This document shows positions 8,677 through 38,418 of a DNA stretch of 64,000 nt, piece by piece. The stretch lies in assembly GCA_039621445.1 (NCBI GenBank), contig CP154954.1, forward strand, positions 23,014,954-23,078,953, in the 5' to 3' direction. Origin of the DNA: Euglena gracilis. Its lineage: Eukaryota. The translations under genes and the position numbers were made by a program. The notes under the pieces were generated by a model that was given only the letters and a program-made list of their open reading frames with translations, was not told the DNA's origin and did not search any database. How positions within the stretch are numbered: position 1 is the stretch's first letter; every line of letters starts with the position of its first letter.

Positions 8677-8730
8677 CTGGAAGGACCGGCTGGGGCGGTA
8701 TTGCCACGGACAGACGGTGACCTTGTGGAC

Positions 8731-9924: not shown

Positions 9925-10129
9925 GGACCAGTAGTTCTTTGTCGAAATCTGATGCGCCCCGCCTTGGCCGTGTGCTTCAGGGCACGGTCTCTCCCCTCCT
10001 TGGGAGATTTGGGGCTTGCTGGGTCTGGGGGGGGGTGCGGGGCTCTTGGGTGATTGCCCGCACGCTCACGCTGGCGTTGGGATTTGACGGCCGGCCCAGA
10101 CCCCCATCCCTGGGGCCTGGGCGGCCCGG

Positions 10130-11736
10130 TCACTCACAATACTGCTCCTGGACGGCCGAGACGTTGCTCTTGCGGTCCTTGCCTTTGCCCTCGGACTTTC
10201 CTTTTCCTTGATCTCCTTTGGCTCCACCTATCGCCTTGCCTTTTCCTTTGCCTTCATCTTGTCTGGGGGCATTCGATGTCCACTGCTCGCCTTGGTACCC
10301 ACCACCTTTTCCTTTTCCTGCATTCCCTTGCCATGCACTCGATGACCACTACTCGGCTTGGTATCCACCCTTTCCTTTTCCTTCTTCACTCGTCCATGGG
10401 CTCGATGACCACTGCTCCGGGTACCCACGTCCCCCTTGGCCTTGTCCCTTGCCTTGGGGCGTGGGCACCGGCGGCGTCGGCGGACGTGGTTGCTGCGCTT
10501 GCTTCTCCTTCTTCGGCGGCACGTTCGTCTTCTCCAACTCCTGGATGTACGGCTCCTCGGTCGTGTCGTCGACCTCCACGTCCCGCTGCCACCGTGGTAC
10601 CGGCCGCTTCTCCGGGATCTCCTTCTCCTTCTTGGGGGCCATCTTCGCCTCCATCCGCAGCCATCTCACCATGAGGTTGTGGATGTCCTTCGCCGGTGGG
10701 TCGCACGAGTCGGCCGTCACCGTGACGATGCTGCTGCCCTCGAGCCGCTGGCGGTCGTACACGGCCTTCACCAGGGTGCGGTGCTCGTCGACCACTGGCA
10801 ACACCACGAAGCCCGCCCCGCCTTCCGCACTGAGGCGGGAGCTACCGTGGTCTCTGGCCTAATCATCTCCTTCACCTCCTCCACCGTCGTGTCCATCGGC
10901 AGGCCCTCCAGCACGATGGACCGGTGGTCCACCCGCTTGTCCTCCTCCTGCGCCACCTTCCGGCGCCAGGGGTGGAGGGGTATGGCCTCCACGAGGAGCT
11001 TCCCCAGCTCCTCCTCCTCCATGCCCACCTGCCTCGCCATGGACGCCATCTGCGCGTAGTACTCCCTCCAGGACTTGTCGGTCAGCTTCCCGCTCGTCAC
11101 CAGCTTCAGCTACCTCATTCGTCGCCGTAGAACCTCCTCGTCCTCGCCGCCGTACGCCAGGTCCACCTCCGCGAACAGCACGGCATACTCCACCTCTCCT
11201 TTGGTCTCGATCTCCTCGTCCAGCACCAGCACCGTAGCCTCGTCCAAAGCCACGCGGAACATGGCGAGACGCTGGGCTGACGTGATGGAAGGCCACGCCT
11301 GCTCGAGTCCCCGAAGGAACAGGAGCCAACGCCTCCGCCACTGCGGCCGGTCCTCCGGATTCCCGGTGAACCGGCCCGGGCGGAGGCCGATGACGGAGTC
11401 CACCAGCGGCGCCGGGAGGAAGTGCAGGGCCGCTGGCTGGGCCTGCACCGGGGCGATGCGGACCTCTCGCACCGCGGACGCGCTGGCGACGGGGACGGCG
11501 GACGGCGTGGTCAGGCGGGCGATGGAGAGGGACGGCACCCCGCCCCCTCCCTCCACGGGCTGCTTCCGGACCAGTCGGAGAGCTGGTCGGAGGGTGGACG
11601 ACGACTTCTCCTGCACCACGGACTCCTCCTGCATGGGCTTCTCCATCTGGACCGTTCTCACCTCTGGCACTGATTGCTGCCGGTCCACCGGCACCGGCTG
11701 CTGCTCGGCTGGGGGTGGCGGAGCCTTGGCGGGCAC
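10130..11736 (-). pseudogene. gag: Element A gag (5' truncated; stops and a frameshift), KG-rich C-terminus ending TGA at 10130-10132
   Basis: PGRFTGNPEDRPQWRRRW gag-like motif; similarity to B gag (SGKLT vs EGKIT); position upstream of pol. Confidence 0.65.
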
Positions 11737-12821
11737 GTCGACTAGGCGGTCATATCCGCACTAGGAAACAAAAGCCTACTTACAGAACCGACTGCCGACG
11801 ACATCTTTGCGGGGGTGGGGAGAAAGTAGAGAGGAGAGGGGGACTGGCTTAGGCCAAAACAGAATTTTTGATGTCTGGCAGCCTTAAGGGCCCTTATTGG
11901 CCGAAAAGTGACAAGAAGGCCAATTATTACGGCGTGCGCGCTGTGTGCTGTGTGTCACTTAGCGGCTTTCCAGGTTTGCCGGCTGCCAAGGTTGTGCGCG
12001 GTCCGAGGGTGCCCGCCCCAAGGGAGGGTCCCAAGGTGGCCCAAAGGGGCCACGAAGGGCCGCGAGGGGGCACCAAGTCCCCCAAGGGCCTTTTGAGGAC
12101 CCACTGGCCCCCATGGGGGCCCCACATCCCATTTTGACCATGCCAAGGGAAGGTAAAGGAGAGGGGAGGTGGAGGGACCCAACAGGCAACACCCAAGGGG
12201 ATGTGCAAGCCCCTCTGGGGTTTGAGCAAGCGTGTGCACCCCCTTGGAGGGCGCTGGGATGGTGCAATTCATTAAGAATTGCGCAAAGTATACCAAGTAG
12301 CCCCTCCAGCTGTAGCCCCCCTCCAATTGTACATTTTCTGCGCAGGGCTCTGTTCACACTCTGTCATTTTTGTTCACCAATTGTGTTGCATTGCAAGTGC
12401 AATTCAAAGTTCAAATCAAGGAAAGTACAAATTACAAATTTCACGTTCAAGTCTCATTGCTCAAGTATTCAAGTTCATTTGTTGAAGCAAAAGTATGTCT
12501 TTTACCCATTCTTCAACATCTCCATCTACACCAACACCCACCCCTACCCCACTGTTTCACCAAGGTGAAAACCCCCACCAGGTGGGCCCGACGGGCTCAA
12601 ATTTTAACGATCCTACGCGGGTTGCGCCACCAGGGGTCCCTTCACAGGGACCTCAGGAGAGGCAACCCTTACAAGGTCTTCACAGCAACAGCTCCTTCAC
12701 GACGTAATAAGAGGCGCTTACCTCTTGCCTACCCAGTAGTTTTCCTTTGATGGTCTGGAAGGATGTTCTTTCTTATTCACCGAAAAATACAGGCTTCAGG
12801 CTTCCTTTCTTCCCACGTCCC

Positions 12822-15800
12822 CTATTCCTCTTCAGTATTCTCATTCGGTCTGCTGTCAATTCTGCGTACCCTTGGCTGTATGAGGCTTAGTAGGTTGTGA
12901 ATCCCAGGAATGCCTGCCAGTAATCTGAGTTCAGGGCATCTTCCACAGGCGACCAACTGGAATTGTGGTGGTGGTGGCCTGTCCACCAGCCAGGTTTCTG
13001 GCGATGCGTAGTCGAAGTAAGTTGCCACCCAGTCCCGAACCCACCCTTTGGGGACTGCCTGCTTGGTTATGCTCGCTCTTTCCGCGAGGAACCACTGCAG
13101 CGTCTCCCAGAATTTTCTGGGCAGAGTGGCTGGCCAGATGAAGTAGTTCATCCGAGGGAGATTGGCTGACTCCTGCGGGACATTCCCCGGGTGGAAGTCA
13201 ATTGGCATGTGATACGCACACTCCGCGCGGACTGTATGGGGTCATAATACGTCCCCAAGCCAGTATTTCCAGGTCTACCCGTGGTTTTCGGGTGGCCATT
13301 GTGGTAGGCACCAGCGACCATTTCGGTCCTTGGTTGTGAATAGGAGGAAAAATCTTTTCCCTGTCCGCTCTCTCCCAGAGGTAAGGTAATCTCACCTCTG
13401 CCTCCTCGGCAGCGAGGCGTATCGCCCCACTGTCGATCAGCCTCCCACGGGCCATTCCCGTGTGGCGGTAGTCGTGGAGCTTGAGGTTGGAGTACTTTGA
13501 AAAAGTCCTTGTACTTTTTGTGCGAGGTGGAGAATTCCTCCAGTGGCTTCTGGCCGCTTGGCACGATTGTGCGAACTGCGCCTTCCGCAGGTTCTCAGAA
13601 GGTACCTCGAAGGCAGTTGACGCAGAGCAGTGGCGGATTCGTACCATCTCGCTCCGTGTAGTGGAAAGTGTGCTTGTGTGTCCAACTGTCCACACACTTG
13701 GTGCATACGAAGTCGATGATAACTTCGTCTTCCGAAGGTGTCTCAGGTGTTGAGGCACGGGATTTTCCCTGCCCTTTTGACTGAGGTGTCGGCTGTGAGG
13801 TTTTCCCATAGCCGGATGACGCGACGTGCATCCTTGTCCCGATGTTAATCCCCGAGAAGAGGATGCAGCACCCTGGCCGCCAGCACCACCATTGCCTTTC
13901 GGGGGGGGCTGATCACCAGATTTCGGTGTGGGCTTGCAAGCGGCGGCACCCGGCTTTCCTTTTTCCCGGGCCTTCGGACTTCCGGTTTCTGTAGTGTCCA
14001 ATGGCCGCCGTTCGGCGTCGCGCTTGCTCGCCCAGGTGCGTGGTGACGCTTGGGACGGGATTCTTCTCCACGAAACCGAACGTTGTTGTCCTTCAGCAGG
14101 GGTTTCCCGAGCTGAGGGTCGACCTACACGCTCATTCGCGGTACCCGTGGGTTTCCCAGGGGCAGCTGTGGGGGATGCTGTTGGTTCAGGCGTTGCCGGC
14201 GCGCTTCGCGCTGGTTGAGCCTGTGGTGGAGAAATGTACGTCCACTCAGCCTGTTTTTCAGGTGCCGGTGTACGTGTGCCTTGACGCTTCGGAGGAGTGA
14301 TTGTGGCTGTGCCCTGAGGAGCGTGTTCATCCCGTGCCTGGGGTGGCGCTACCGGCGCTGATACAGGTTCATCCTGCACTGGCACGGTTGGTGTTGTCTT
14401 CACTGCCAATGCTGTCTGTTCGCCTTCCGTCCGTGTCGCTTCCGACACCGGCGGTGGCGCTGCCGATGGGGGAGGTTCATCCTCCACCAAGGGTGCAGGA
14501 TCAGGTGTTTCTTCCGCCGGCTGGGCAGTTTTCGCCGCAGCTGTGGAAGAACTGACCGCAGTGCCACGTGGAGTGACAACTGCGATCAGTGACCGCAAAA
14601 CACCGAATACGCGTCCGCCCAGCAAGGTGCGCCGCTCAGGTCCTTCACCTGAAGTGGGATCCTCCGCTGGCTCCTCTGTCGACGGGATTTCCCTGGAAAC
14701 AGGGAGCTTGAGGAGAAATACCTCAGGCGTGTGGGGTACTGTCTCCCGCGGGTTTTCCCGCGGAGGGGCCGGTACGCTTGTCGTACTCAGTGAGGTTGGT
14801 GTCTGTGGTACAGGTGTAATTTCACCTGCCGGCGATCCTGGGCGCTGGGCACTTTCTGCCACAGTGTCCAGCATCACGACAGATGGGTTACGGGTTTCCC
14901 GTGCCAGAGGTTCCGCTGACTGAGGTTCACCATCGGCCGTTGGGACCGCTTCCTCCTCCTCCTCCGCTTCCGGAGGGGATTCCTCTCTGTGCAGATGTGC
15001 TGCAGAACGCGTGTCATTTCCGCTCCTGTAGCACCCTCGTGCACATAACAGGCGATAGAAGGTTATACTTTCACTCCTGTCAGAGTTGGGGTATGGGGGC
15101 GGCCATGACGCTCTTACCCAGCTTCCGGGTTGATGTTCTGGCTCGTCCTCGCTGATCATGCAGAGGTCTTCCCACTGCATTCGACGGTTGCAGCTCATGC
15201 CGTATTGTCCTGTGTATTCCTGGAAGGCGGGCAGCGGCAAAACATAGCGTGGTTGTTTTTCTACGTTTGCCGCATCGAAGGCTTCGAAGTCTTCCCAGAC
15301 CAGGATATTCCCGAACTTGGTGTCCATGTGCTCCTGGAGACAAATTTCGGCCTCCTGCAAGTCCGGCCGCAGGTTCATCCTGCGTCGGTCTGGATCATTG
15401 TGTCTGGCGTCCACCTCGGTGTATCCCCGGGGTAGCCACTTCCTATTGATATCCAAAGCAGTGATCATGAATTCCAGGAAAAAAATGTAAACCTCCAGGA
15501 CGTAGGTAATAAACGCCCTGTGCCAGTATCGTTGCAGCGAAAATATTTTCTGCCGGTTCAGTTTTAGCACCTTTCGGTCTTGCGCTCCGCTCTGAGGATT
15601 CCGGCACTGTTGCAGGAGAAACCTCCTGGTCCTCTGGCTGCGGGCATTCTCGGCAGTCGGAGGCGGTTTTCCACGTTCTCCGAAACCCCAGAAGTCAACA
15701 ATGTACTTCTTTGCAAAACTGGCATTCCAGTTTGTACCGTCGGAGGTACGCGAGGTTGACGTCCAGCACCTTGAACAGAGTGCCACATGCTGTCCAAGTA

Positions 15801-17270
15801 GATTTGCAGATTGCATGTGAACATTACCGCGGCCTGCGCCTGGAGTTTCTACGGCAGGGGGTAATATTTCCACTGGATTCCCAGTGCTCCGACGGAATAC
15901 ATGTGGTTGAAGACTTCCTTCAACTGTGCTACGAAAGTTTCGTCGTCCGGACATATTCCCAAACAGTCAATATACGTCTGACCGTTTCGGCCGTTAAAGA
16001 TTCCAAAGTTCTGGCAGGGGTATCCCAACCAGAACCACAGCTCCCAGAAACCCGACATCCGGTCCAAGACGACTTCATCCGCATGAGGGTATCCCTCAAA
16101 CGCATGAAGTTCGGAACTGTAGAAAGATCTTTTTCAGTGATCGTATGTACGATTCTGCACCACTTCGAGCACCGCATCAAGTGGTCGGTGGATCACTTCC
16201 TTGCGCGTGTGTACTTCTGGAGATCCTCGTCGATTTTAGACAGGATCTCCTGAAGGTAGTTGAACACCAGGGAAACGTCGTAATCCTTCGTTTTCGAAGT
16301 TTCGGCGGCTTTCCCGCCTTTTCCTGCTGGGGGTCCGGCAGATTTTCCGCCTTTGCCTGGAGCTGGCCAAGCGGCCTTTCCGCCTTTGCCAGGTGGGGCT
16401 TTCCCACCTTTCTCTGGCCTTTTCCTTTTCCCTTACCCTTGCCCTTTCATTTGAGCGCTGTGGGTACTGTCAGACGTGGCGGAAGGGTTTCCTTCCGCGT
16501 GGCGTCTTGGCATATGGTCAGGTATGGCAGGGTGGGGTTGAGGTGGATACACGTACTGATCTCGTGGCACTGGTGCCTCCTGGGGATAATCCCCAGAGAC
16601 GGTGTACTGAGCCACATGCTCCTGCGCGGGATAATCCCGCCGGGGCATGCGCTCAGGGGATCGAAAAAAACTTTCTTTCACGCGTAGTCCGGTCACTCCG
16701 GACAGGTGCTTCCCCTGTCTCTTCCTCGGGTATTCTGGGGAGTGAGCACGGAAATGCACGGTGTAAGTGCCAACTGACGGTACCTGCGGTGCTACCTGTG
16801 GTGGGACTTCCAAGCCCAGTTCACGCATGGTAATGTCCGCCGCGACTCCCGATGTGTCCGAGTCGGTGTAATACGCCGAACCGGTCATCATCGCCTGGGC
16901 GCTCATACACCACAGGGCTGGAGGGGTATTCGCGATTGTCAGTGTCTGACGGCAGTGGTCATCACACAACACCTGGGTGAGGTGGTCTGGTGCCGGGTTT
17001 GCGCTCATACGAATAACACGGTTCATCGTCTCCGCCGTGCAATGGAGCATCACACCCGCATACGGTGGGAGGCTATGATGGCCTGATGGCTGAGATGACC
17101 ACGCTTCCGCGGGCATCTGTGTCAACCTGGTACTGCTGCTGGCTTCAGGGTTTCCCTGGTGCAGGTGGCTGCGTACCGTATTGGTACGCATATTGGTCAG
17201 GTTGACGGTGAGTGGTGGGGTGGTAAGGCGGCCCTCCGCCTGGCTCACTTACACCGGGCAGCATGATACC
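12822..17270 (-). pseudogene. Large unknown 3' accessory ORF of the D family, fragmented (16433..17248, 15849..16407, 13198..15954, 12822..13208)
   Basis: Same strand as pol; conserved in copy D2; alternating globular W/C-rich and P/A/T/KG-rich blocks; no recognisable family. Confidence 0.6.
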
Positions 17271-17419
17271 GCCCGGGGGCGGTACGGTAGAATGGTTGGG
17301 TTGTTGGTTGTCAGTTGGTAAGGGTAACCGCTTGAGTATTGTCTGGCAAAAATACTTCTGCGGAAAGAAAGAATGATAAGAATCAATTGAAAAATGAAAA
17401 GAAAACAACATGGGTTTCC

Positions 17420-21838: not shown

Positions 21839-22673
21839 GAACCAGTGAGAGCCAACACCCCCCCCCCTGGATGTCATTTCTCCCAGTTTCTGTTCCAAAA
21901 AAAGGGTTTTGGGGTGAAAATTGGCCTGTGGTTGCCTGAGTTGAGGAGTCCCACCCCCCTGCCCCTTTTCCCACAGGTGAGGTGGGGGGAAGACAAACCT
22001 CACCTTCTTCAATTGAGCTTTCTTGATTGATTTGTTGTCCTTCCATTTGCAATTCCAATTGTAAATCCAAGTTCAATGATTGAATGTAATTGGTTGTAGT
22101 TGACACAACAAATGCAATGGTGAAACAAGTGAAGAGGAAAACCCTGTGAAAGAAATATTATTTTGATGCCCCTGATGGGCAGTTAAATTTAGGACTGAGT
22201 GCGCTGATTCCTAAGCGCTGTCAAATCCCAAATCCTAGCCCATTGCATCAAAATCAACCAACCCAAGTCAAAATCAAGGTTTCCTCCCTTGATTTTGATA
22301 AATTATTCTGAATTCCATCATTATTGAGCTTTTCAAACCCCTGCAAAAACTCCAGGAACTCAGGCGCCAATCTCTTAAAATTCTGTTCCAAGCGCTTGCA
22401 AGCGCTCTCACCAAATCCAACATTTTTCCTTAAAACCAAAGGAAAAATGCGTAAAAAGCTTAACATTATGCTAAATAGACCCAAAATCACCCTTTGGGAG
22501 TACCTAGCATCACTCAACCTCTCTCCTTGCACAACCAAACCATGGGCGCCCTAGGAGAGGGAATTTTAATGGAAACCTTTAGAAAGCCTTAAAATTAGAG
22601 CTAAACCACCCTTAAAAAGGCCTTCTAAAAAGGAAAACTCCGCCGCCCGGCGGTCGACCTCAAAAGGTCGTCA
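21839..22673 (-). repeat. Element B 3' LTR, proximal part; PPT at ~22674-22684
   Basis: Direct repeat of 34311-35141; minus strand AACGGGGGGAG|TGACGACC. Confidence 0.9.
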
Positions 22674-25077: not shown

Positions 25078-28000
25078 TTAATCCTTAGAGACATCTAAAG
25101 GCAACCCTTTTCCCAGGCAATACGCTATTACGTCGCTATTGTACTCCTGGAGAAAATGTTCCACCGGTTCCCAATTCGCCTCCTCAAACCCTTGCCACTT
25201 CGTTAAGAAAAACATTTTTCCCTTAACGAACTTGTGGTTTAGGATTTTATCCACTAACCAGGTATCTGGGGCACCTTCCGCCTCAGGTGCCGTCCGCCGG
25301 TGGAAAAATAGGGGGATAGGCTTATCTGATGTGGGGTCCTCCACATACACCTTCAAAGCCTTCCTATGGGCCTTCATAATATAGCCCGGTTTAAGCTCAA
25401 TTAGGTAGGAGTGAATTCCCTCCCTTGCAGTAACCTTGCAAGGGCCCAACCAAAGGGAATCCAATTTTGTGCCACTATCGGGGGGTCTCAGGTACCACAC
25501 CAGATTTCGCACCTCCAATGGCCCCCAACCGTCTAAACCACGGTTGGCCCGAGCACATTGCTTGGCATGCAAATTATTCATTTTGCCAGCCACTACCAAA
25601 TCAATTTCTCTTTGCCGAGAGAAAAATGATCTGGCATCTTCACAATCCCTTAACGGTTCATAAGGTAAACCACCCAGTGAACGGTGCCGACCGAACAAGA
25701 TTTGAAATGGGCTTAGGCCACTCTCCCCCGGCGTATCATGGATACGGTCTAGTGCTTGGGGGAGGGCTTCAACCCATTTCAACTTGTCCTCAACCTGAAT
25801 TTTCATAAGCCGTTCCATTATTTGTTGCGCAGCCCTCTCCGCCCTACCATTCGCCTGGTGATGGTAGGCCTGGGAGCAGGCTTGCCTAATTCCCATCAAG
25901 GCACACATTGTCTGCCACCAACCGGAGACAAAATGTGAGCCTAGATCGGAAGTAATAATGGAAGGGAGGCCAAAAGGTCGCCAAGCATGCAACAGCATTT
26001 GCTTGGCTGCCTTGGCTCCCGTAAATCCTTTTGCTAGGTGGGGGATCGCCACTATCCAACCGGAGTGACGATCCACACACACAAGCATGCAGTCGTAAGA
26101 ATTACCTTCCCACTGCACGAGGGGCATGCTGAACATATCAAGGGCCACCGAATACATTACGGCTGGGGGTATGGGTGTAGATTCCACTAAACCCTTGAGA
26201 CTCGCCGGCCTTCGGCACGCTTGGCAAGTCCCACAAAGGCCCATGACTCCTTTAGCAACATCTCGAGCGAGTGAGTGATCAGCCCAATCATACCTAAGGG
26301 ACATGCATTCCCATAGCCTTGGGAATCCCACATGCCCTTGGTATGAGTGGTGATCCCGAATGAGCTTTTCTTGGAGAGATTTGGGCACACAAATCCTCTC
26401 CTTGAAAAACATTTTGTCACCAAAAACCTTGACATTTTCAGGCCACGGCACCTTTGAATCCTGGGTAGCCTGAAAAATTGGTGACCAACGGGGACATTTT
26501 AAATATTCCTCCTTCCACGATAAATCCCACACAGAACCAGGGGGGATGGGTGAGGAATCGGTTGTAGAAGTGGCTCCCCCCCCCTCACCACTCAAACCAC
26601 CCGAAGACAACACAGGTGATTCTCGGTCTGCCCCAGGTACCTCAGTGGTAGCCGCGGCAGCAGGTGCAGGGGTTGGCATTGTTGGCGAAGCTGGTATAGA
26701 AGTGGGTGTCAATGGAAAATACTCTCCCCTTGGCTCTTGGACCTCCTCCAGAAGATTTGTTTCATTCCCTAACTCGTCAACCCGAGTTAAGAATGAAACA
26801 TGTTTTCCCTTTTCTCCCTTGGGGGTGGAGGTTGCACCCAAAACCTGGGGTTTTGTTCCTCCAAGTGGTTCTGACTTCCTATCCCCCGGTCGTGTGCACC
26901 GTCCACCCGCGTCCCCGGACCCCGTGGTAGCACCACCCCGTGTGGTGACTCCACGAATGTATGCGTTGGCTGTGGTTGGTTGGTCCACCAACCGTAGCCA
27001 CATACATTCGGCTTCCTCCATTTTTTCTGTTTGAATGACTTCCCTCATTTCCTCGGTGTCAAGGGCTGACCCATGCCTTGAAATGTCCTTCAAGGCTTGG
27101 GAGGCCGGGTAAGCCCATCTTGACAAAAAATCGGCCATGGTATTCTCCCGCCCCGGGATATACCCAACCGACAGGTCAAATTTTGATAAAACCCGATGCC
27201 ACCTAGCCCTTCTCCCAATGGGACCACTTGGCGTGTCTGGAACCTCTCTAGCCCAAGATTCTAGAGCCTTGTGGTCCGTGAGAACCAGGACGGGCTGCAG
27301 CCCAATCCATGATTTCCACTTTTGTAAGGCTAGGATTATGGCATAAGTCTCCTGTTCCCTAGGTACCCAGTTTCTTTGGCTGCCCGTTAGCTTCCTACTC
27401 ATGAAGGCGACAGGCACAGTACGCTTGGTCCGTACGTCTTCAGGAGTAGGAGCCCTGTCCTCCCCAACCAATTGTTCAAGGGTGGCACCAACCGCATACT
27501 GGCTGGCATCCACTCTTAAAACAAATGGTTTGTCTGGCTTAACGCGTTGTAAAATTAATTCACTGCACAACAGTGCTTTAATGTTTTCAAATGCCTCAAT
27601 GTCGGATGGTTCCCAAGAAATCCTTTTCTTGGAACCTTTCTTGCCGTCCACTCGTGAAACTTTGAGCTTATCCTGAAGGCAAGCGACAATGTGGGCATAA
27701 TCCTTCACATAGGAGCTGTAATAATTTGTGAACCCGAAAAAGGCACGTAGACCCGTGATTGTTTGGGGTAGCTCCCATTTTTCAATGGCCATTAGCTTTC
27801 CAGGGGATGGTTTTCTCGCCCCACCACCCAGAACATGGCCACAAAACTCAACTTGTTTTACGAAAAGGTGACATTTTCTTTTGTCGGCTACAAAGCTGTC
27901 TTTTCGTAAAACTTCAAGGACTCTTCGCAAATCCTTGTCATGTGCTGCGAGTAAATCCTCACCAGGACCCAGTCGAGTTCCAATCAAAATGTCGTCGATG

Positions 28001-29479
28001 TAAGGATCAGCCACGTCCCCCACCGGGAAGAGGCGATCCTCCATCATTTGCTGAAATTGCTGGCTTGCGTTTGTTAGACCCATCACATTAACCTTCCACT
28101 GAAAAAGACCGAGGGGGGTACTGCAACATGTGATGGGCCGGCTTTCCGGGTCCAACGGCTGTTGGTGGAAAGCCTGCCGTAAATCCAAGATGGAAAACAT
28201 CATGTTTCCACCTTGTTTTACCAGGAGGTGTTCAATTACGGGAAGGGGGTAGGACACACTCCTAGTTTGACTGTTAGGCCCCCGCATGTCTACCACTCCC
28301 CTCCGTTCACCTCCTTTTTTCGGCACTACAAATGTTACGGACAGCCATTCCGAAACTGTTCCCTTGGGTAATCGCTCAACAAATTTCCGGTCCCACCATT
28401 CCTGTGTGACCTTTTTGTGAGCTTCAAATCTTTCACCGTGTAAGACAAAGGGTCTTTGCCTTGTGGGTACAGCCCCCTCCTTCAGAGGAATCTGGGCGTA
28501 ACCATAAGGTCCCCGTACGGGAGGGTCAGGGGGTACCTCCGTACCCAACACTTCCCCTTCATAATCCTGAAAAATTTTATCCCGAAATGCTGGCACCCTG
28601 GGGTCTTCCTTCTCACCCGAGTCGCGAGCCTCGATTATGGCATTTACTGCTTTGTCCTCGGCTGGCGATTCGGTGAGATGCTTGGCTATGGTATGCAATT
28701 CCTTCTTGCCAAGTAATTTTGGTTGCGTATCAAAGCCTTGCAAGGGTAGGTGCAAATTCATTTTTTGCAGGTCCAACCACACCTTTTCATTTTCAAGGGA
28801 CTCCGTGGTTGGTGCGTTTTCAGGGGATTCTCCGAAGTCAGAAACCACAACCCCAATTCTTTTTTGTGAATTGTGTTTTTTCTTCCCCTTATGGTATTTC
28901 CTTTTCCGATTTCTTGTATCCCACCCGTACAAGAAAGTCAGATTAGGGTTGTCAAAAACCGAGGCCTTATGGTGTGGGAACACACCCAAACCATGTTCGG
29001 CTAACCATGGAAATGATAATATAGCATCTACCTCAGTATCTGCGAGGTAAAATTCCCCTTCGCGGTACAAGGCCTGGGTCCCCGCCTGCCCCGTGCCCCT
29101 GCGTTGAAAAACCAACTCCAACTTAATACTGGTCGCCCCCCAAAACACATTGGCCGTTGGCAGCCACCAGCCGAATAGGCATTCGTGGTGACCTGGCCAA
29201 ATGTTTTGGAACGATGGACCTTTTGCCCAGGTTCACCTGGGCTCCCGTGTCCACCAAAACTTTGAGCTGCTTGGTATCTCCGTTAGGGAGATACGTCTGT
29301 GATGACATCAAAAGTTGCAGCTCGTTTTCAATGGGCAACACCTGATTAACCTTCAATGTGTTGGCCAAATGACAGCAACGGTCTGGAATTTCCCATTCCT
29401 CAAAATGCTGGGAATTTTGGGAAGTTTCTTTGGGCTGCCGCCCCAGAAAATCCCTAGCACTTAGGAGATAATCAATCAC
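25078..29479 (-). CDS. pol: Element B pol: PR (VLVDTGA, frameshift ~29140), RT, RH, INT, chromodomain
   Basis: 1356-aa open frame: LDLRQAFHQ, YIDD, VDASQYAVGATL, TDHKAL, HHSYQGH..CGTC, ITSDLGSHF, NGRAE, DTWLVDKILNH..TKWQG..NWEP. Confidence 0.97.
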
Positions 29480-30213
29480 CAGGGGGGAATTCTTCCTTTT
29501 AGTCGGGGAGTAAACTTCATTTTTCTGCCCCCCAACAATTCACGGTGCCGGAACTGCCCATTGTCCCCCATAATCAGGTCAGGACACGATTCGCCATCGC
29601 ACAACACCGACCGTTGTTGTGAAATGGCTGGGCAGCACCAGAAACGTGTGGGCTTTTTATAACCCCAATCCGAAAACTGACAATAATCAATGTCGATATA
29701 GGGCAGGTTTTTCACCACCTCCCTATTTCGCAAAAGACCAGTGCGGGGGTTCTCCAACCACCACAACTTTGGCTGAAAATAATTTATAATTTCCAGGGCT
29801 TTCTCCACCAGGGCATCCGCCTGGGAGAAATCCTTCGGCCTGGGGTTATAGGCTGTGGAATAAACATTACAGGGGGGACTAGCGGCAATAACCACAAAAA
29901 ATCCAACCGGGTATCGCCTGTAGTCCCAGGTCAAAATGTCTGTGTGGGGGTGGAAGTCCGTCCTGGGGGCATTTTCAATTGACAAAACTTCATACCACCG
30001 TTCTGCCAACCGCCTCCCTACTGAACCCGTGCCAGCGAATAAGTCTAATGCCTGAGGTCGCTGGACTGATGGTAGGGGGTTGGGCTGTGGCAGGTTTGAA
30101 TGCAAAACAGGAACCCTTGAACATTTTCCTTCCCTCCAGGAGTATCGGGTCCGATTCAAAAATCTGGGGGGCTGATCCAAAGAATGTGTTTTACCACACC
30201 CTGAATCAGCCAT
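29476..30213 (-). CDS. Element B C5-cytosine DNA methyltransferase
   Basis: Intact motif I LDLFAGTGS, motif IV ASPPC, motif VI WLENP, IDYCQF..GYKKPTRFW; adding one C to the C6 run at ~29482-29487 fuses it to PR (RIPPLVIDYLL, cf. A HIPKGVVRYL). Confidence 0.92.
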   Translation of the reverse strand: MADSGCGKTHSLDQPPRFLNRTRYSWREGKCSRVPVLHSNLPQPNPLPSVQRPQALDLFAGTGSVGRRLAERWYEVLSIENAPRTDFHPHTDILTWDYRRYPVGFFVVIAASPPCNVYSTAYNPRPKDFSQADALVEKALEIINYFQPKLWWLENPRTGLLRNREVVKNLPYIDIDYCQFSDWGYKKPTRFWCCPAISQQRSVLCDGESCPDLIMGDNGQFRHRELLGGRKMKFTPRLKGRIPPW

Positions 30214-30267
30214 AAAATCATGTACAGCCCAGTTTTTTGAATCAGAAATATTTACACCGTTTTCCTC

Positions 30268-30330
30268 ACAGGGGGGAGAGACACGGCCATGGGCAGCCCC
30301 CCCTTTCTCAAACTGCCCCTGGCCCCCCTA
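30268..30330 (-). promoter_or_regulatory. Putative gag stop-codon readthrough signal (UAG-G plus pseudoknot)
   Basis: TAG followed by 38 sense codons in frame to the MTase ATG; GGCCAGGGGCAG pairs with CTGCCCATGGCC, and loop AGGGGGG pairs with downstream CCCCCCT. Confidence 0.65.
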
Positions 30331-33300
30331 TTGGGCCCCAGGGGGAGAAGAGGTGGGCCCACCCTCCTTTGACCATGCACCCCCCTTGCCTGAGGAATTT
30401 CGCTGAGTGGCTGGCTGCCCTTTACCCTTGGGCTGCCCCTTGCCTTTTCCATTATTTTGCCAAAATTCCTTAGATTTAGCAAGGGCCTCACTCAGCGGTT
30501 TATCACACTCATAAAAATAATGTCCACACTCCCCACAGTTGAAGCATGGATACAAGGACCTGCCCATACCCGATGCCTGCGGGGTCCAGGTCTGCCCCCC
30601 CTTGCCTTGCCGGGCTGGGGGTGCTGGACTTTGGGTTCGCGACCATGGAACTGCTGCTGATCGCGAAGACGAAGAAGGGGACCTGCCCCGTGGGGCTGGC
30701 TGGGCTGCCCCCTTATCGCCCTTCGCAGCTGGCTGTGGGGCAGACTTTGAGGTGTGACCCTGCCCCCCAGCTGCTGGTGCTGAAACAGATGTTCGGGACA
30801 CCGGGGGGGTCTGGCCTTTCTCCAACGCCTGTATTTTCCCCGAGCCTTTTGTTGTCGATTTGCTGAATAATCTGGGAAAATGGTGCTGATTCAAAGCCAA
30901 ATCCTGCTTCTCCCGAAGAGCTAACTTGCCCTCGGCAAAAGCAAACATTTCCTCAACAGTCATTAGTTGTTCCACCAATTCGGCGTTGAGGAAATTTTCC
31001 ATTCCCTGCAATTTCCTTCCATTTACGGCTGTTAATTTCAGTGCCTCCTCCGAAGAAACTGAAATAAAAAGGCAAATGGCACCAGGGCTTTTGATAACCA
31101 CTTTCCGTGGATCAATCCCCCCAGTGATCTGGCTCACACTCCTTTTAATCCCATCCACCGTGGGATTTGGTATCCCTGTGAGCCTGACAATGGGTTGTTT
31201 TTCCGGGCTCGGTTATACTCCTCTTCTATGCAAAACGTGCTTAAAAAAGGAGGAATTCTTTCCAAGAATAATCTCCGAGCCTCCCCGGCTGTGGCATCCT
31301 TAACATGGTGCCAGGCACTGCAAAATTTGATCCCAAATTCGTGCAGATCAGCCCGGGTTATTTTTCCTTCGTTTACCATGGTTACCTCTTGCCATATTTT
31401 CCGAGCCGTTAGCCCCTTACTCGAGGCATAACGGTTCTGGAACTGGGCCAATATGGTGGGGTAACTTAATTTAGCTCCATTCAACCGATAGTGCCTGATT
31501 TCCTCCCTTAATCTGCGTCCTAAACATGCCTCAAAAACCTGCAGCTTTTGCAAATCAGAATACGGTTTCCCTGATGTCAACCTATCCCAGTAAAGATTCC
31601 AATCTACTTCAAAAACTTGCCAGGAAATGCTGCCCGATTCATCAAAATAGGGCTTAGCACCTCCCTGCAAAATTTCAAAAGGTACTGGGTCGCCAATAAA
31701 AGGAAAACCCAACCCGTTACCTGGGTTGGCTGCAGCCCCCCCTGTCCCGATAGGCCCAATCGAGAAAGCAGGGGCTGCAGAAACATGTGGGGGGACACAC
31801 AATGACACCAAAGAAACCACTGGCGTATCTTGCATGTCCTCCAAAACAAAGCCCCCCTCAGCAACTAAGGGAGGGGAAATGTTTGAACCTGCAGATTTAT
31901 TTTGTAGAACATTCAGATCTGAAAAAGCTGGGTCAGCACTGGGCACCGTGCTGGCCAGAGGGCTGGAAGGCTGCCCCAGGGGCTGCTGCTGTCCAGCCGA
32001 CGGCAGGCCCAGCCCCCTTGGCAGCCCGTGAGCAGGCAGCGCCTGGCCTGCTGGCTGGCCAAGTTTCTGGGCTAGCTGGACGACGGGCTGCTGGGCCAGC
32101 TGCTGCCCAGGCTGTGGCAGCTCCACTGGGTGCAGGGGCTGCTGGCTGCCCTGCCGCAGCCACCACATGTCAGAAATTTTCTGCAACACTCCTCTCGGTT
32201 CTGCACTTGGGTGTACGGGTCCATTTTTTTGTAAATCCTGCAGCACTTTCTGTAACTCGAAAGTGTTCCCCCCAACTTTTGCAAGTCCCCGCCTTAATTC
32301 CTCCACCAGCCCACCAAATTCTTTCTCCTGGGAAAAAATCTGCTGATAAACACTCTGAAAATTCTGCTGACAATCCGTCAACAGTTTTTGCATTTCTGAG
32401 TGTCGTTTCCCTGCTTCATCTGAAATATTCTGGTGCAGTTTTTGAATACCCCCACCAAAACCATGGAGGGCTGTATTCATCGCTGAGTTTTGTTCACCCA
32501 GCTGGCGAACATAATCGGTGAACTGCTGAAGCTGCTGAGCCTGGCCCTGGACCGTACCTCGCAGCGACACCAGGTCAGCCTGAACTTCAATGATTCTGGC
32601 AGCGACAACGGCCAGCTCCTGGAGAGTTTCTGCCTCCCCCCCCTGAGCTGGCTGGGCGGCTTTAAAATTCTCAGCGAACCGCTGAAAATTTTCAAGCACG
32701 AGATCCTTAATTGGCAAGGCAGCCACCTGATTTTGCACTTGTTTCAAAATTTCCTGTGGCAGGTTGTCCAAAATTCGTAAAAACTCCTGCCTCAGTGCCA
32801 AAAACTGATCACGGCTCGAAGAAAACTGCTGGGCCAGTTTTTCCTCAAAACTTTTTTCCTGCCCGACAAAAAGTTCGAGTGCCTGTGCGTCTATTTTTTG
32901 CACAGAAATTTGCACCTGGGCCTCACATTTTTTCTCAAAAAGTTCAAAAATATGGAGGCAGTCAGCCCTGGCCGTTTCTTCGATTCGTGCAGCCATGTGC
33001 TCTACCAGGTGGACGTCGACTGCAGGGGGTTGTTGCTGCTGCTGCTGCTGCTGCAGAACCCACTCTTCGTTGGCTTTTTGCAAAGCCAAAACCCGAAAAG
33101 TCAGGTGCTGCACAGCCCACTGGAGGTCTCTGTTACTTTGTAAAAATTGCCCCCAGGGGTCTTCAAATCCTGAAGATTTTGTGAACCCCCCTGGGGGTGG
33201 CTTCGGAACTTTCATAGGCTGGGGGTTGGACCTCCTCCTCACCCCCCTCGATGAAAATATGAGGAGGCGGGGGGGCTGCAGCAGCTGCTGGCTGACCGTG

Positions 33301-33960
33301 ATCAACCTCACGGTGCAGCCGTTTTTGCTGAACTTCATCACTGCCTGGTGATGAAGCCGGTGTTCGGGGTCGTCGAGCAGAAGTAGAGCTGGGCTTGTCC
33401 TTCGGGTTTTCCTCTGCCTGCTCGACTTCTGCTCTGACCCGTTCGCTGCTGTTCCAGTTATTTTTATCGTTTAAGCCCAGCACATTGACCTGTGCTTGCT
33501 TTTCAAAGAAAACTGGGCTGGGGTTATCACGCCCCTGCCCTGCCGAGGCACTTGCCGTTTCCTTCGCCAGCCCATCTACCTGGGATGGTTGGGAAAACTG
33601 CAAAAGTGCCACCGGCTCTTGGGCTGGTGTTTGAGAAACTGGTTGAGCTGGAGGCAAAGGCAATGCAAAAGCGGGTAACGATGGCAGATTCCCTAAATTT
33701 TGCACCCATGAAAAGTCTGGGAGAGGTTGCAACTCAGGCAGCACAAAACCATACCCCATATTTTGCAACGGCAAAACCCCCGAAAAAGGCTCTGGAAAAC
33801 ACGGTTGGTTGGAAATGACAACCTGGCCATCCCCACCCTGTAATTCCAACATCTGTCTCATATTTGTAGGGGTTCTGAGTCCAGCCAAACTGGTTTCGGG
33901 TCCCAACTCCCTGTGCCCCGAAACTCCAATCGTCAGATTTGCCATCTGAGATTTGGCCAT
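30328..33960 (-). CDS. gag: Element B gag (Q-rich coiled coil, capsid-like region, CCHC knuckle); two homopolymer frameshifts
   Basis: ORFs 33163..34044, 31134..33341, 30328..31158; KPYFDE..W..F...W; CFNCGECGHYFYEC. Confidence 0.85.
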
Positions 33961-34021
33961 TGGCTGATAATCAAAGAAAACATTCTGAGCAGGGATTTCC
34001 AACCCAAAATTTCTGACAGAA

Positions 34022-34036
34022 GGCTGAAGGCCACCA
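34022..34036 (-). promoter_or_regulatory. Element B primer-binding site TGGTGGCC (tRNA-Ile-like)
   Basis: Immediately follows LTR end TGAAACA; tRNA assignment rests on 8 nt only. Confidence 0.65.
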
Positions 34037-35141
34037 TGTTTCACACCCGTGCTGCCATGTCCCTCGGCAGCACTGGGGTGAAGCGGAAACCCCCGCCCTG
34101 GGCCAGTTTCATGCGTAGGATCGTTTTTTGGCTCCTCGAGCCGACTTGTGTCAGAAATTTTTTCCCATTCTGGCCCCGCCCTGTGGCCGAAACTGGGCCA
34201 TCATTTCCAAGGAGGAACCTCCCAGTGGACCCTCCCCGACCCCTGAGGGGGGTGTCACTGGGATCTCCAAGGGGGGTGCCTTTGGGGTTTTAACCCCTCC
34301 CTGCTCAGCTGAACCAGTGAGAGCCAACACCCCCCCCCCCCTGGATGTCATTTCTCACAGTTTCTGGGCCAAAAAGGGGGTTTTGGGGTGAAAATTGGCC
34401 TGTGGTTGCCTGAGTTGAGGAGTCCCACCCCCCTGCCCCTTTTCCCACAGATGAGGTGGGGGGAAGACAAACCTCACCTTCTTCAATTGAGCTTTCTTGA
34501 TTGATTTGTTGTCCTTCCATTTGCAATTCCAATTGTAAATCCAAGTTCAATGATTGAATGTAATTGGTCGTAATTGACACAACAAATGCAATGGTGAAAC
34601 AAGTGAAGAGGAATTCCCTGTGAAAGAAAATATGATTTTGATGCCCCTGATGGGCAGTTAAATTTCGGATTGAGTGCGCTGATTCCTAAGCGCTGTCAAA
34701 TCCCAAATCCTAGCCCATTGCATCAAAATCAACCAACCCAAGTCAAAATCAAGGTTTCCCCCCTTGATTTTGATAAATTATGCTGAATTCCATCATTATT
34801 GAGCTTTGCAAACCCCTGCAAAAACTCCAGGAACTCAGGCGCCAATCTCTTAAAATTCTGTTCCAAGCGCTTGCAAGCGCTCTCACCAAATCCAACATTT
34901 TCCCTTAAAACCAAAGGAAAAATGCGTAAAAAGCTAAACATTATGCTAAATAGACCCAAAATCACCCTTACCTAGCATCACTCAATCTCTCTCCTTGCAC
35001 AACCAAACCATGGGCGCATTAGGAGAGGGAATTTTAATGGAAACCTTTAGAAAGCCTTAAAATTAGAGCTAAACCGCCCTTAAAAAGGCCTTCTAAAAAG
35101 GAAAAACTCCGCCGCCCGGCGGTCGACCTCAAAAGGTCGTC
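34037..35141 (-). repeat. Element B 5' LTR (~1105 bp)
   Basis: Matches 21839-22673 plus 18032-18307; ends CA; terminal T lost or mutated. Confidence 0.92.
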
Positions 35142-38100
35142 TGTGGGCTTGCAAGCGGCGGCACCCGGCTTTGCTTTTGCCGGGGCCTTCGGACTTCCGG
35201 TTTCTGTAGTGTCCAATGGCCGCCGTTCGGCGTCGCGCTTGCTCGCCCAGGTTCGTGGTGACGCTTGGGACGGGGGTCTTCTCCCCGAAACCGAACGTCG
35301 TTGTCCTTCAGCAGGGGTTTCCCGAGCTGAGGGTCGACCTACACGCTCATTCGCGGTACCCGTGGGTTTCCCAGGGGCAGCCGTGGGGGATGCTGTTGGT
35401 TCAGGTGTGGCCGGCGCGCTTCGCGCTGGTTGAGCCTGCGGTGGAGGCATGTACGTCCACTCAGCCTGTTTTTCAGGTGCGGGTGTACGTGTGCCTTGAC
35501 GCTTCGGTGCAGTGATTGTGGCTGTGCCCTGAGGTGCCTGTTCAACCCGTGCCTCGGGTGGCGCTACCGGCGCTGATACAGGTTCATCCTGCACTGGCAC
35601 GGTTGGTGTTGTCTCCACTTCCAATGCTGTCTGTTCGCCTTCCGTCCGTGTCGCTTCCGACACCGGCGGTGGCGCTGCCGATGGGGGAGGTTCATCCTCC
35701 ACCATGGCTGCAGGATCAGGTGTTTCTTCCGCCGGCTGGGCAGTTTCCGCCGCAGCTGTGGAAGAACTGACCGCAGTGCCACGTGGAGTGACAACTGCGA
35801 TCAGTGACCGCAAAACACCGAATACGCGTCCGCCCAGCGAGGTGCGCCGCTCAGGTCCTTCACCTGAAGTGGGCTCCTCCCTGGAAACATGGAGCTTGAG
35901 GAGAAGTACCTCAGGCGTGTGGGGTACTGTCTCCCGCGGGTTTTCCCGCGGAGGGGTCGGTACGCTTGTCGCACTCAGTGAGGTTGGTGTCTGTGGTACA
36001 GGTGTCATTTCACCTGCCGGCGATCCTGGGCGCTGGGCACGTTCTGCCACAGTGTCCAGCATCACGACAGATGGGCTACGGGTTTCCCGTGCCGGAGGTT
36101 TCGCTGACTGAGGTTAATCATCGGCCGTTGGGGCCGCTTCCTCTTCCTCCTCGGCTTCTGGAGGGGATTTCTCTCTGTGCAGATGTGCTGCAGAACGCGT
36201 GTCATTTCCGCTCCTGTAGCACCCTCGTGCATATGACAGGCGATAAAAGGTTATACTTTCACTCCTGTCAGAGTTGGGGTATGGGGGCGGCCATGACGCT
36301 CTTACCCAGCTTCCGGGTTGATGTTCTGGCTCGTCCTCGCTGATCATGCAGAGGTCTTCCCACTGTATTCGACGGTTGCAGCTCATGCAGTATTCTCCGG
36401 TGTCTTCCTGGAACGCGGGCAGCGGCAAAACATAGCGTGGTTGTTTTTCTACGTTTGCCTTATAAAAGGCTTCGAAGTCTTCCCAGACCAGGATATTCCC
36501 GAACTTGGTGTCCATGTGCCTCTGGAGACCAATTTCGGCCTCCTGCTAGTCCGGCCGCAGGTGCATCCTGCGTCGGTCTGGATCATTGTGTCTGCCGTCC
36601 ACCTCGGTGTATCCCCGGGGTAGACACTTCCTATTGATATCCATATCAGTGTTCATGAATTCCAGGAAAAAAATGTAAACCTCCAGGACGTAGGTAATCA
36701 ACGCCCTGTGCCAGTAGCGTTGCAGCGAAAATGTTTTCTGCCGGTGCTGTTTCAGCACCTTTCGGTCTTGCGCTCCGATCTGAGGATTCCGGCACTGTTG
36801 CAGGAGAAACCTCCTGGTCGGCTGGCTGCCGGCATTCTTCGGCAGTCTGAGGCGGTTATCCGCGTTCTCCGAAACCCCAGAAGTCAACGATGTGTACTTC
36901 TTTGCAAAACTGGCATTCCAGTTTGTACCGTTGGAGGTACGCGAGCAGTGTTCCGACGGAATACATGTGGTTGAAGATTTCGGTCAACTGTGCTACGAAC
37001 GTTTCGTCGTCCGGACATATTCCCAAACAGTCAATATACGTCTGACCGTTTCGGTCGTTAAAGATGCCGAAGTTCTGGCAGGGGTATCCCAACCAGAACC
37101 ACAGCTCCCAGAAACCCGACATCCGGTCCAGGAGTATTCATCCGAATGAGGGTATCCCTCAAACGCATTAAGTTCGGAACTGTAGAAGGATCCTTTTCAG
37201 TGATCGTACGTACGATTCTGCACCACTTCGACCACCGCATCCAGTGGTCGGTGGATCACTTCCTTGCGCGTGTGTACTTCTGGAGATCCTCGTCGATTTT
37301 AGACAAGATCTCCTGAAGGTAGATGAACACCAGGGAAACGTCGTAATCCTTCGTTTTCGAAGTTTCGGCGGCTTTCCCGCCTTTTCCTGCTGGAGGTCCG
37401 GCAGATTTTCCGCCTTTGCCTGGAGCTGGCCAAGCGGCCTTTCCGCCTTTGCCAGGTGGGGCTTTCCCACCTTTCTCTGGCCTTTTCCTTTTCCCTTACC
37501 CTTGCCCTTTCATTTGAGCGCTGTGGGTACTGTCAGACGTGGCGGAAGGGTTTCCTTCCGCGTGGCGTCTTGGCATATGGTCAGGTATGGCAGGGTGGGG
37601 TTGAGGTGGATACACGTACTGATCTCGTGGCACTGGTGCCTCCTGGGGATAATCCCCAGAGACGGTGTACTGAGCCACATGCTCCTGCGCGGGATAATCC
37701 CGCCGGGGCATGCGCTCAGGGGATCGAAAAACACTTTCTTTCACGCGTGGTCCGGTCACTCGGACAGGTGCTTCCCCTGTCTCTTCCTCGGGTATTCTGG
37801 GGAGTGAGCACGGAAATGCACGGTGTAAGTGCCAACTGACGGTACCTGCGGTGCTACCTGTGGCGGGACTTCCGCGCCCTGGTCACGCATGGTAATGTCC
37901 GCCGCGACTCCCGATGTGTCCGAGTCGCTGTAATACGCCGAACCGGTCATCATCGCCTGGGCGCACATACACCACAAGGCTGGAGGGGTATTCGCGATTG
38001 TCAGTGTCTGACGGCAGTGGTCATCGCACAACACCTGGGTGAGGTGGTCTGGTGCCGGGTTTGCGCTCATACGCATAACCCGGTTCATCGTCTCCGCCGT

Positions 38101-38418
38101 GCAATGGAGCATCACACCCGCATACGGTGGGAGGCTATGAGGGCCTGATGGCTGAGATGACCACGCTTCCGCGGGCATCTGTGTCACCCTGGTACTGCTG
38201 CTGGCTTCAGGGTTTCCCTGAGCCGCAGTCCGTGCAGGTGGCTGCGTACCGTATTGGTCCGCATATTGGTCAGGTTGACGGTGAGTGGTGGGGTGGTAAG
38301 GCGGCCCTCCGCCTGGATTCCTTACATCGGGCAGCATGATACCGCCCGGGGGCGGTACGGTGGGATGGTTGGGTTGTTGGTTGTCAGTTGGTAAGGGTAA
38401 CCGCTTGAGTATTGTCTG

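Follow-up and report, generated by a model that had tools for sequence, protein, structure and literature searches.

How do the enzymes of a retroelement come to be made when its gag reading frame closes on a UAG and they are encoded, in that same frame, beyond it? The question is raised by a junction at positions 30268-30330 on the minus strand of the window (the whole stretch of 64,000 nucleotides of Euglena gracilis DNA analysed here). There a first-pass annotation had proposed that a UAG readthrough signal with a downstream pseudoknot joins gag to a DNA methyltransferase (MTase) and pol in an element that we refer to as element B. We consider it likely that this stretch of B is a type III, gammaretrovirus-like gag/pol readthrough signal, which in intact members of the family would yield a Gag-MTase-Pol protein. 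The proposal that Gag-MTase-Pol is controlled by readthrough gains support from the comparison with the junctions of relatives, which is set out below after the anatomy of the element itself.

Element B and its gag/pol junction

Judged by its sequence, element B is a chromovirus-like Ty3/Gypsy LTR element on the minus strand, with a Pol that opens with a C5 DNA methyltransferase. It has LTRs, a gag with a knuckle, the domain order PR-RT-RNaseH-IN and a C-terminal chromodomain. Its parts, read 5' to 3' on the minus strand, are as follows.

34329-35105, minus strand: 5' LTR, approximate edges (direct repeats D9, D12 and D18, 96-98% identity to 21855-22637)
31134-33470, minus strand: upstream part of gag, an ORF of 778 codons with a coiled-coil and then a capsid-like region; proteins P0002 and P0153 match the C-terminal portion
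30331-31212, minus strand: C-terminal part of gag (gag294), an ORF with a CCHC knuckle and a G/K/Q-rich tail, 70% identity to P0002
30328-30330, minus strand: UAG, the gag stop in the ORF listing and the proposed readthrough site, context UAG GGG
30052-30327, minus strand: linker of 92 codons, an open frame from the UAG to MTase motif I; its first ATG is codon 39 (30213-30211)
29476-30051, minus strand: C5 cytosine DNA methyltransferase with motifs LDLFAGTGS, ASPPC and ENPR (PF00145, E 0.0017, below the Pfam cut-off)
29123-29539, minus strand: aspartic protease ORF, motif VLVDTGAQ read by eye, in the -1 frame relative to the MTase
25078-29232, minus strand: ORF of 1384 codons with RT, RNase H, integrase and chromodomain (Pfam RVT_1, RT_RNaseH, rve, Integrase_H2C2 and Chromo)
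21855-22637, minus strand: 3' LTR, approximate edges (direct repeat pairing with 34329-35105)

The gag294 ORF comprises 294 codons (30328-31212 including the stop), and its CCHC knuckle, CFNCGECGHYFYEC, was read by eye; for the upstream part of gag (31134-33470), Pfam gave no family above the cut-off. The ORF that follows the UAG (29476-30327) continues the frame of gag294 and becomes MTase from about codon 93, and the RT ORF (25078-29232) keeps to this frame as well. A search with the MTase of B returns 2248 homologues at E<=0.001, while by language-model features its nearest relatives are small phage-type C5 MTases. Pfam was also applied to 54 of 130 listed long ORFs; four gave a family, all transposon-like, and 50 gave none. 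Another repeat pair encloses element B.

On the evidence of its reading frames, the window copy of B is a decayed member of its family, with three frame changes, and it is probably non-autonomous. One frame change separates the upstream gag part (31134-33470) from gag294, a place at which P0002 and P0153 are continuous. Another falls between MTase and protease, mid-motif, in the six-C run at 29482-29487; the relatives P0003, P0004 and P0008 carry MTase and PR in a single frame. The last lies between protease and RT, near 29123-29232. Copies of B in public sequencing runs show length differences at or near these sites, with contigs tending to end at the C-run. That a feature is shared by most copies is also compatible with amplified defective lineages, and is hence no proof of function.

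On re-reading, the minus-strand sequence of the junction (30330-30268) matches the quoted one exactly, and the frame past the TAG is open for 38 codons, as had been claimed, to a first ATG that is codon 39, at 30213. The first-pass annotation had called this codon the MTase ATG; its position as the first in-frame ATG stands, and a role for it as the start of the MTase would be hypothetical. Both named stems, as well as the proposed extension of stem 1, were located, and every pair in them is Watson-Crick.

30319-30327, minus strand: spacer GGGGGCCAG, 9 nt before stem 1, with five of the six MoMLV functional bases (G1, G2, G5, C7 and A8)
30313-30318, minus strand: stem 1, 5' arm GGGCAG, pairs with 30291-30296
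30291-30296, minus strand: stem 1, 3' arm CUGCCC, pairs with 30313-30318
30320-30324, minus strand: basal extension of stem 1, 5' arm GGCCA, within the spacer and across a G/A mismatch
30285-30289, minus strand: basal extension of stem 1, 3' arm UGGCC, pairs with 30320-30324
30298-30304, minus strand: stem 2, 5' arm AGGGGGG, in the loop of stem 1, pairs with 30270-30276
30270-30276, minus strand: stem 2, 3' arm CCCCCCU, 14 nt past stem 1, pairs with 30298-30304

Stem 1 together with its base amounts to -20.8 kcal/mol in B. Being part of the spacer, the basal extension would be melted by a ribosome sitting on the UAG. The B site does not stand out by folding energy alone: the 96-nt fold has -39.2 kcal/mol (z +0.97 against shuffles), and the 63-nt fold has -31.4 kcal/mol (z -0.71), which is matched by 48 of 200 shuffles. 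Pseudoknots are not scorable in ViennaRNA, and the energies given for B are those of nested folds; the nested optimum has the C-run paired to the G-run of the spacer and not to the loop. That spacer G-run, the nested partner of the C-run, would be covered by a ribosome positioned on the UAG. A second stem of at least 5 bp is available to 34% of 728 random 6-bp stems from the window, one of at least 6 bp to 16% and one of at least 7 bp to 3.7%, and on the non-coding strand an open run of 92 codons is found at 9.6% of positions. A search of Rfam with the junction RNA gave no match near a gathering score.

Gag/pol junctions of related elements

A scan of metagenomes with an MTase alignment gave 80 loci, six of which (L002-L005, L013 and L027) carry PR or RT too; neither was detected at the other 74. 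Two of the six were dropped as junctions, L027 because it begins inside the MTase and L004 because no gag-like ORF is present in its 336 upstream bases. In L002, L003, L005 and L013, a gag-like ORF is followed by a stop and then by a pol-side ORF, all in the same frame, and the downstream domains were verified by Pfam.

L002: G/K-rich tail, then TAG, then MTase in the same frame; an in-frame ATG stands at codon 35 after the stop
L005: 1255-codon gag with two knuckles, then TAG, then a Dam-like domain, protease, MTase and RT
L013: 958-codon gag with two knuckles, then TAG, then 39 open codons into the protease N-terminus, followed by a frame change; its pol has RT, RNase H, IN and chromodomain
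L003: gag tail with a knuckle, then TGA, then protease and MTase in the same frame

A second MTase element of the window, element A, occupies roughly 4.3-11.8 kb of the minus strand (GC 67-70%) and has an MTase that is 43% identical to that of B. Its junction has the following features.

10089-10132, minus strand: junction of element A, with the gag-frame UGA at 10132-10130, GGCC at +4 and a base stem reaching to 10089 (z -2.79)
10094-10122, minus strand: stem of element A, GCCCAG (10122-10117) with CUGGGC (10099-10094)

The MTase ORF of A opens at 10065 in a frame other than that of gag, and the frame change must fall in 10065-9975, a region with a nine-C run. For L002 and A, the assignment of the upstream ORF as a gag tail is by composition only (BLASTP E 0.13-74), and the linker protein of B has no significant similarity to that of L002 or A (E 3-5). 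Searched with the MTase alignment, the genome contigs gave no match; the viral contigs gave 39 with standalone MTase relatives and no junction.

Besides B, five junctions (A, L002, L003, L005 and L013) show one arrangement, in which the stop is followed by a spacer of 6-9 bases and then by a stem with a G-rich loop able to pair with a downstream C-rich run. The dimensions of each are given here.

B: spacer 9, stem 1 of 6 bp, L1 8, stem 2 of 7 bp, L2 1, L3 14
L005: spacer 8, stem 1 of 7 bp, L1 4, stem 2 of 6 bp, L2 0, L3 13
L013: spacer 6, stem 1 of 7 bp, L1 3, stem 2 of 6 bp, L2 2, L3 12
L002: spacer 8, stem 1 of 6 bp, L1 6, stem 2 of 6 bp, L2 3, L3 9
A: spacer 7, stem 1 of 6 bp, L1 6, stem 2 of 5 bp, L2 6, L3 10
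L003: spacer 9, stem 1 of 5 Watson-Crick pairs and one G-U pair, L1 about 2, stem 2 of 5 bp, L2 about 0

Over the 60 nt past the stops, the junctions have 15-23 of 60 bases in common when compared without gaps. The compensatory changes that had been looked for among copies of B are seen here, among the junctions of its relatives: stem 1 reads GGGCAG, GGGACGA, CAGGGCU, UGACCA and GCCCAG, with an exact complement for each, so that it has varied with its pairing kept. By this covariation over five junctions, stem 1 is a well-supported prediction. L003 has a 5-bp basal stem from +4, as B does. RNAalifold, run on a MAFFT alignment of three junctions, was uninformative, the alignment being non-structural, and pairs were counted by script instead.

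How readily such an arrangement arises by chance was measured with a strict rule. It asks for a 6-bp Watson-Crick stem that starts between +7 and +12 and encloses 8-22 nt, and for another stem of at least 5 bp that joins this loop to bases no more than 25 nt downstream; having seen L013, we widened its register ranges once. B, A, L002, L005 and L013 pass, and L003 passes only if one G-U pair is admitted. At arbitrary anchors, the rule is passed by 738 of 63877 positions on the minus strand of the window, 104 of 6182 in L005, 19 of 7727 in L013 and 13 of 1214 in L002. In local dinucleotide shuffles of the 75 nt after the stop, it is passed per 4000 by 67 for B, 9 for L005, 27 for L013, 51 for L002 and 129 for A. 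With B as the template, four of the five test junctions pass, and the product of the chance rates of these four is about 6e-9. The architecture of B alone is modestly above chance; its recurrence is far beyond chance, even allowing for the widened ranges and for the failure of L003 under the strict rule.

In all six junctions, the 5' arm of the candidate stem 2 is G-rich and lies in the loop of stem 1, and the 3' arm is C-rich and lies downstream. Stem 2 nevertheless appears less secure than stem 1: it is possible in all six, and it faces competition from nested folds. Its 3' arm is taken up by a local hairpin in L002, and the loop of A pairs with itself; in these two junctions, the nested folds are more stable than the parts of the knot. 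The second stem may not be the conserved part of the signal.

In MuLV, the sequence after gag is UAG GGA GGU CAG GGU CAG. This is the sequence with which the first-pass annotation had compared the B junction; its hexanucleotide and named bases are borne out. A 2026 review, in the part of it drawn on here, gives the type III context as UAGGGV, with UAGGGA in gammaretroviruses, and describes for MoMLV an 8-nt purine-rich spacer with functional G1, G2, G5, U6, C7 and A8 and a knot from G9 (PMC13517186). The UAGGGV context is present in B (UAGGGG) and in L005 and L013 (both UAGGGA), and is not found in L002 (UAGAGG), A (UGACCG) or L003 (UGAAGA). The stop itself is an in-frame UAG in B, L002, L005 and L013, and UGA in A and L003. 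All six MoMLV spacer bases are present in L005 (GGAGGUCA) and L013 (GGAAGUCA), five of six in B (GGGGGCCA, with C at position 6) and three of six in L002. By the context and these bases, L005 and L013 resemble gammaretroviruses more closely than B does. In the window, the 14-base motif TAGGGRRGYCAGGG has a single occurrence, that of B, against 0.21 chance matches expected when one mismatch is allowed; of the 120 fetched loci, two contain it, L005 and L013, each at its gag stop.

Alternative readings of the stop

Comparison with relatives argues that the gag TAG of B is not a private decay mutation. In P0002, a protein of 454 residues from another source with 67-70% identity, the upstream gag part and gag294 are continuous in a single frame, which closes with ..SSPPLAQ; B reads ..SSPPGAQ-TAG, so that the two end at the same residue. 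P0153 joins the upstream gag part to the next ORF in one frame and stops before the knuckle. A query with the protein of the junction region had P0002 as its sole match, with none among shorter proteins, and P0002 used as a query added only P0153. The gag alignment had no match in metagenome contigs or viral contigs; a match to it in genome contigs, L001, was rejected as spurious low-complexity.

Copies of B were compared over 29050-31350 in four public runs, X1, X11, X15 and X20, the last being an RNA library. The TAG is conserved among them to the extent that no change at 30328-30330 occurs among the best-supported 40 of 143 differences. The dominant contig of X11 in this region (record 12, depth 176, 30128-30341) reads the TAG and both stems, extends just 11 bases past the TAG and differs only at 30188, 30192, 30220 and 30304. 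In X15, one contig (record 18) bridges the TAG well, with 18 differences, eight of them listed. Position 30304 is G on the minus strand (T>C on the plus strand) in nearly all other copies, a synonymous change of AAA to AAG in the loop of stem 1. Contigs of the runs frequently end at 30324-30341 and at the C-run 29482-29487, and X20 has partial coverage of gag and MTase that ends at 30324.

These data bear on the reading that the TAG arose by decay, for example from CAG, in a dead lineage, with the structure a by-product of a G-run and a C-run. Such a history would suit a copy with LTRs just 96-98% alike, three frame changes and an ordinary fold energy, and a clear in-frame TAG of element A does correspond to a CAG in the next unit of its own repeat. 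It leaves aside, however, the shared end of P0002, the constancy of the TAG among the best-supported differences in the four runs, and the same architecture after the in-frame stops of four metagenome junctions and the gag-frame stop of A, with the joint chance given above; we consider it very improbable. To a host that reads UAG (or UAR) as glutamine, and for which the codon would be no stop at all, we give next to no credence. The pol of element A does contain in-frame TAA, TAG, TAA and TAG and no TGA, and readthrough in MuLV likewise inserts Gln (PMC4178896, in the portion consulted). But 186 CAA/CAG stand against one UAR in the 2877 codons of B's open frames, and that one is exactly at the end of gag; A and L003 have UGA at the equivalent place, genetic code table 6 merges no convincing genes in the window, and the four stops of A are expected from C-to-T decay (105 CAA/CAG against 18 CGA).

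It also seems quite improbable to us that the UAG is an ordinary terminator, with MTase-Pol expressed by reinitiation, by internal initiation at the ATG of codon 39, from spliced or subgenomic RNA, or by bypass, and with the stem serving, for example, packaging or dimerisation. An in-frame ATG is indeed available in both B (codon 39) and L002 (codon 35), the linker proteins have no detectable conservation, and the yeast element Tca2 offers a MuLV-like context for which reporters did not confirm simple readthrough and splicing was considered (PMC2194720, as far as its cited part goes). Independent initiation, however, does not need the stop and the pol-side ORF to share one frame, as they do in B, L002, L003, L005 and L013, and the MTase ORF of A has no Met before motif IV. 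The position of the stem, 6-9 nt past the stop everywhere, and spacer bases that match the functional ones of MoMLV also speak for readthrough.

The proposed readthrough and known systems

Under the readthrough model that we favour, most ribosomes would terminate at the gag UAG and release Gag, and a minority would insert an amino acid at the UAG and continue in the same frame to give Gag-linker-MTase-PR-RT-RNaseH-IN-chromodomain. Readthrough would be favoured by the UAG-GGG context (type III, UAGGGV), by a G-rich spacer of about 8-9 nt and by a GC-rich stem held at the mRNA entrance with the UAG in the A site. In B, the G-run of the loop and the C-run 14 nt downstream could then form an H-type pseudoknot. 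Readthrough by ribosomes and its frequency, as well as the formation of stem 2, are what we infer for this site, and from readthrough it would follow that the MTase is present in particles only within Gag-Pol.

Taken together, the junctions suggest that Gag-MTase-Pol is probably dosed by MuLV-type readthrough in a new kind of carrier. MuLV-type signals are known from vertebrate retroviruses; the carrier here is Gypsy-type and is found in an unrelated eukaryote and in aquatic metagenomes. The proposed dosing would supply a transposon-borne cytosine methyltransferase at a low level, as a Gag-Pol fusion. De Mendoza et al. 2018 suggested that DNMT-bearing elements methylate their own cDNA, and a Gag-Pol fusion would be consistent with that suggestion. 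The recurrence of the signal suggests that its mechanism engages conserved features of the ribosome or of eRF1, and the natural variants of spacer and knot could be used to ask which of their features matter. A bolder reading, which we put forward as a speculation more doubtful than not, is that the MuLV-type cassette (UAG, GGAGGUCA-like spacer and H-type knot) is no gammaretrovirus invention. It would instead be an old module of reverse-transcribing elements, shared or repeatedly re-invented, and kept in a chromovirus-like clade of microbial eukaryotes, where it meters a DNA methyltransferase. Were this true, the agreement of the spacer across distant hosts would mean that the spacer acts on universally conserved eukaryotic termination machinery, and a methyltransferase packaged with reverse transcriptase could methylate new cDNA.

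In-frame gag stops have precedents outside the gammaretroviruses. The statement in the first-pass annotation that most Gypsy elements use frameshifting or a single ORF needs correction in this respect, in-frame gag stops being already documented in Tj1, Tosmo1-3 and Tcry1. These fission-yeast elements have a TGA gag stop in the 8-bp context GAA TGA CT, and the in-frame stop is required for the activity of Tj1 (PMC4600332 and PMC10085805, in the parts cited). Like B, they are Gypsy chromoviruses with an in-frame stop before a pol that lacks its own AUG; they differ in using TGA and, so far as the cited parts go, in that no downstream pseudoknot is mentioned and no methyltransferase is present. 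Tca2 of Candida albicans, a Ty1/copia element, has an in-frame UGA, an 8-nt purine-rich spacer and a predicted pseudoknot described as "very reminiscent of MuLV" (PMC2194720, same part). It thus resembles B in the combination of stop, spacer and predicted knot, and differs in belonging to the Copia superfamily and in its UGA. Reporters did not confirm simple readthrough in Tca2, with splicing considered by the authors (same source), and look-alike contexts call for caution because of this result. Stem-loops 3' of leaky stops are widespread according to the passages cited from PMC3159437.

Methyltransferases carried by retrotransposons have precedents as well, namely KnitGypsy-Dnmt3, SymbioDIRS-Dnmt3 and SymbioLINE-Dnmt (PMC5890265, in the part cited). 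KnitGypsy-Dnmt3 is like B in having a C5 methyltransferase within the Pol of an LTR Gypsy element. In the part cited, the DNMTs of these elements are of Dnmt3 type or of a Symbiodinium-specific lineage, a possible difference from B, and a gag stop or readthrough goes unmentioned there. A literature search found no paper describing readthrough in a methyltransferase-bearing Gypsy element.

The closest likeness is to the gammaretroviral signal itself. For MuLV, the cited part of PMC4178896 describes stems S1 and S2 with a 1-nt L1 and an 18-nt L3, readthrough of 5-10% with Gln inserted, and a 27-65-fold loss when either stem is destabilised. As in MoMLV, an in-frame UAG stands in B between the nucleocapsid knuckle and the enzymes, in a UAGGGV context and followed by a G-rich spacer with G1, G2, G5, (U/C)6, C7 and A8. 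Stem 1 likewise begins about 9-10 nt past the stop, a candidate second stem would join the loop to a downstream run, and L3 is long, with 18 nt in MuLV and 9-14 nt here. In both, stem 1 can be lengthened beyond an interruption by part of the spacer, as the NMR structure of MoMLV indicates in the account available. The differences lie in the carrier, here a chromovirus-like Gypsy element with LTRs and not a vertebrate retrovirus, and in the dimensions of the knot, with an L1 of 3-8 nt here against 1 nt in MuLV and a stem 1 here of 6-7 bp. The candidate stem 2 here has its G-rich arm in the loop and its C-rich arm downstream. The arrangement in MuLV stem 2 is the opposite one. Finally, the first domain past the stop here is a methyltransferase or a Dam-like domain, and not the protease that follows in MoMLV.

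Interruptions of the reading frame in elements A and B

4339-11760, minus strand: element A, a second Gypsy element bearing a methyltransferase (MTase), very rich in GC (67-70%)
29476-29490, minus strand: change of frame between MTase and protease (PR) in element B, inside a run of six C

The pol of element A is a single frame of ~2300 codons with no frame changes, and its sole interruptions are the in-frame stops TAA at 8731, TAG at 6961, TAA at 6316, and TAG at 5362. In the gag tail, a TAG is found at 10351-10349, while the next repeat unit has CAG at the matching place. On the basis of the pol stops that occur without a change of frame, and of this TAG to CAG difference, the decay of element A looks like the C-to-T type, not the indel type.

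In element B, the chromovirus-like Ty3/Gypsy element, the frame changes within the six-C run, midway through a motif whose coding stays in one frame in relatives. Most contigs from public runs terminate at this run, and one contig from X15, a sequencing run that is possibly RNA, has one extra letter there. The frame change may represent decay, an assembly error in the homopolymer, slippage, or frameshifting.

Gag, 3' region, and surroundings of element B

31134-34200, minus strand: gag region of B, compared with gag relative P0153 and metagenome loci L005 and L013
22638-25077, minus strand: interval of ~2.4 kb from the pol stop to the 3' LTR, with open frames
13900-17400 and 35100-38400: pair of direct repeats, each ~3.5 kb, 94-97% alike

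The gag in the clade of B, P0153, L005, and L013 is unusually long, from 950 to >1250 codons, and has a long coiled-coil-like N-terminal region followed by a capsid-like part; no Pfam family scores above its cut-off. The interval downstream of the B pol contains open frames of 160-250 codons that overlap one another and give no Pfam matches; it may hold an additional gene or consist of decayed remnants. Element B lies between the two direct repeats, which are spaced 21.06-21.2 kb apart, and is thus contained in a larger element bounded by repeats.

Other mobile elements and the MTase family

331-918, minus strand, at the start of the window: N6-adenine methyltransferase domain, Dam-like, matching Pfam PF05869 (E 6.6e-11)
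55600-62700, plus strand: 1972-bp unit repeated four times in tandem, with 93-98% likeness between copies

The tandem units contain RT and RNase H fragments from a further Gypsy-type element. The Dam-like domain is of a kind that DIRS-type elements carry; in L005, such a domain and a C5 MTase occur together at 3771-6305, downstream of the gag stop.

Most members of the MTase family, taken across loci L002-L120 and proteins P0003-P0151, are standalone. Neither PR nor RT is detected in 74 of the 80 metagenome loci, and related MTases are also present on 39 viral contigs. Among the MTase retroelements the domain order differs, being MTase-PR in B, L004, and L027, and PR-MTase in L003, L005, and L013. 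The clusters closest to the family are small phage-type C5 MTases.
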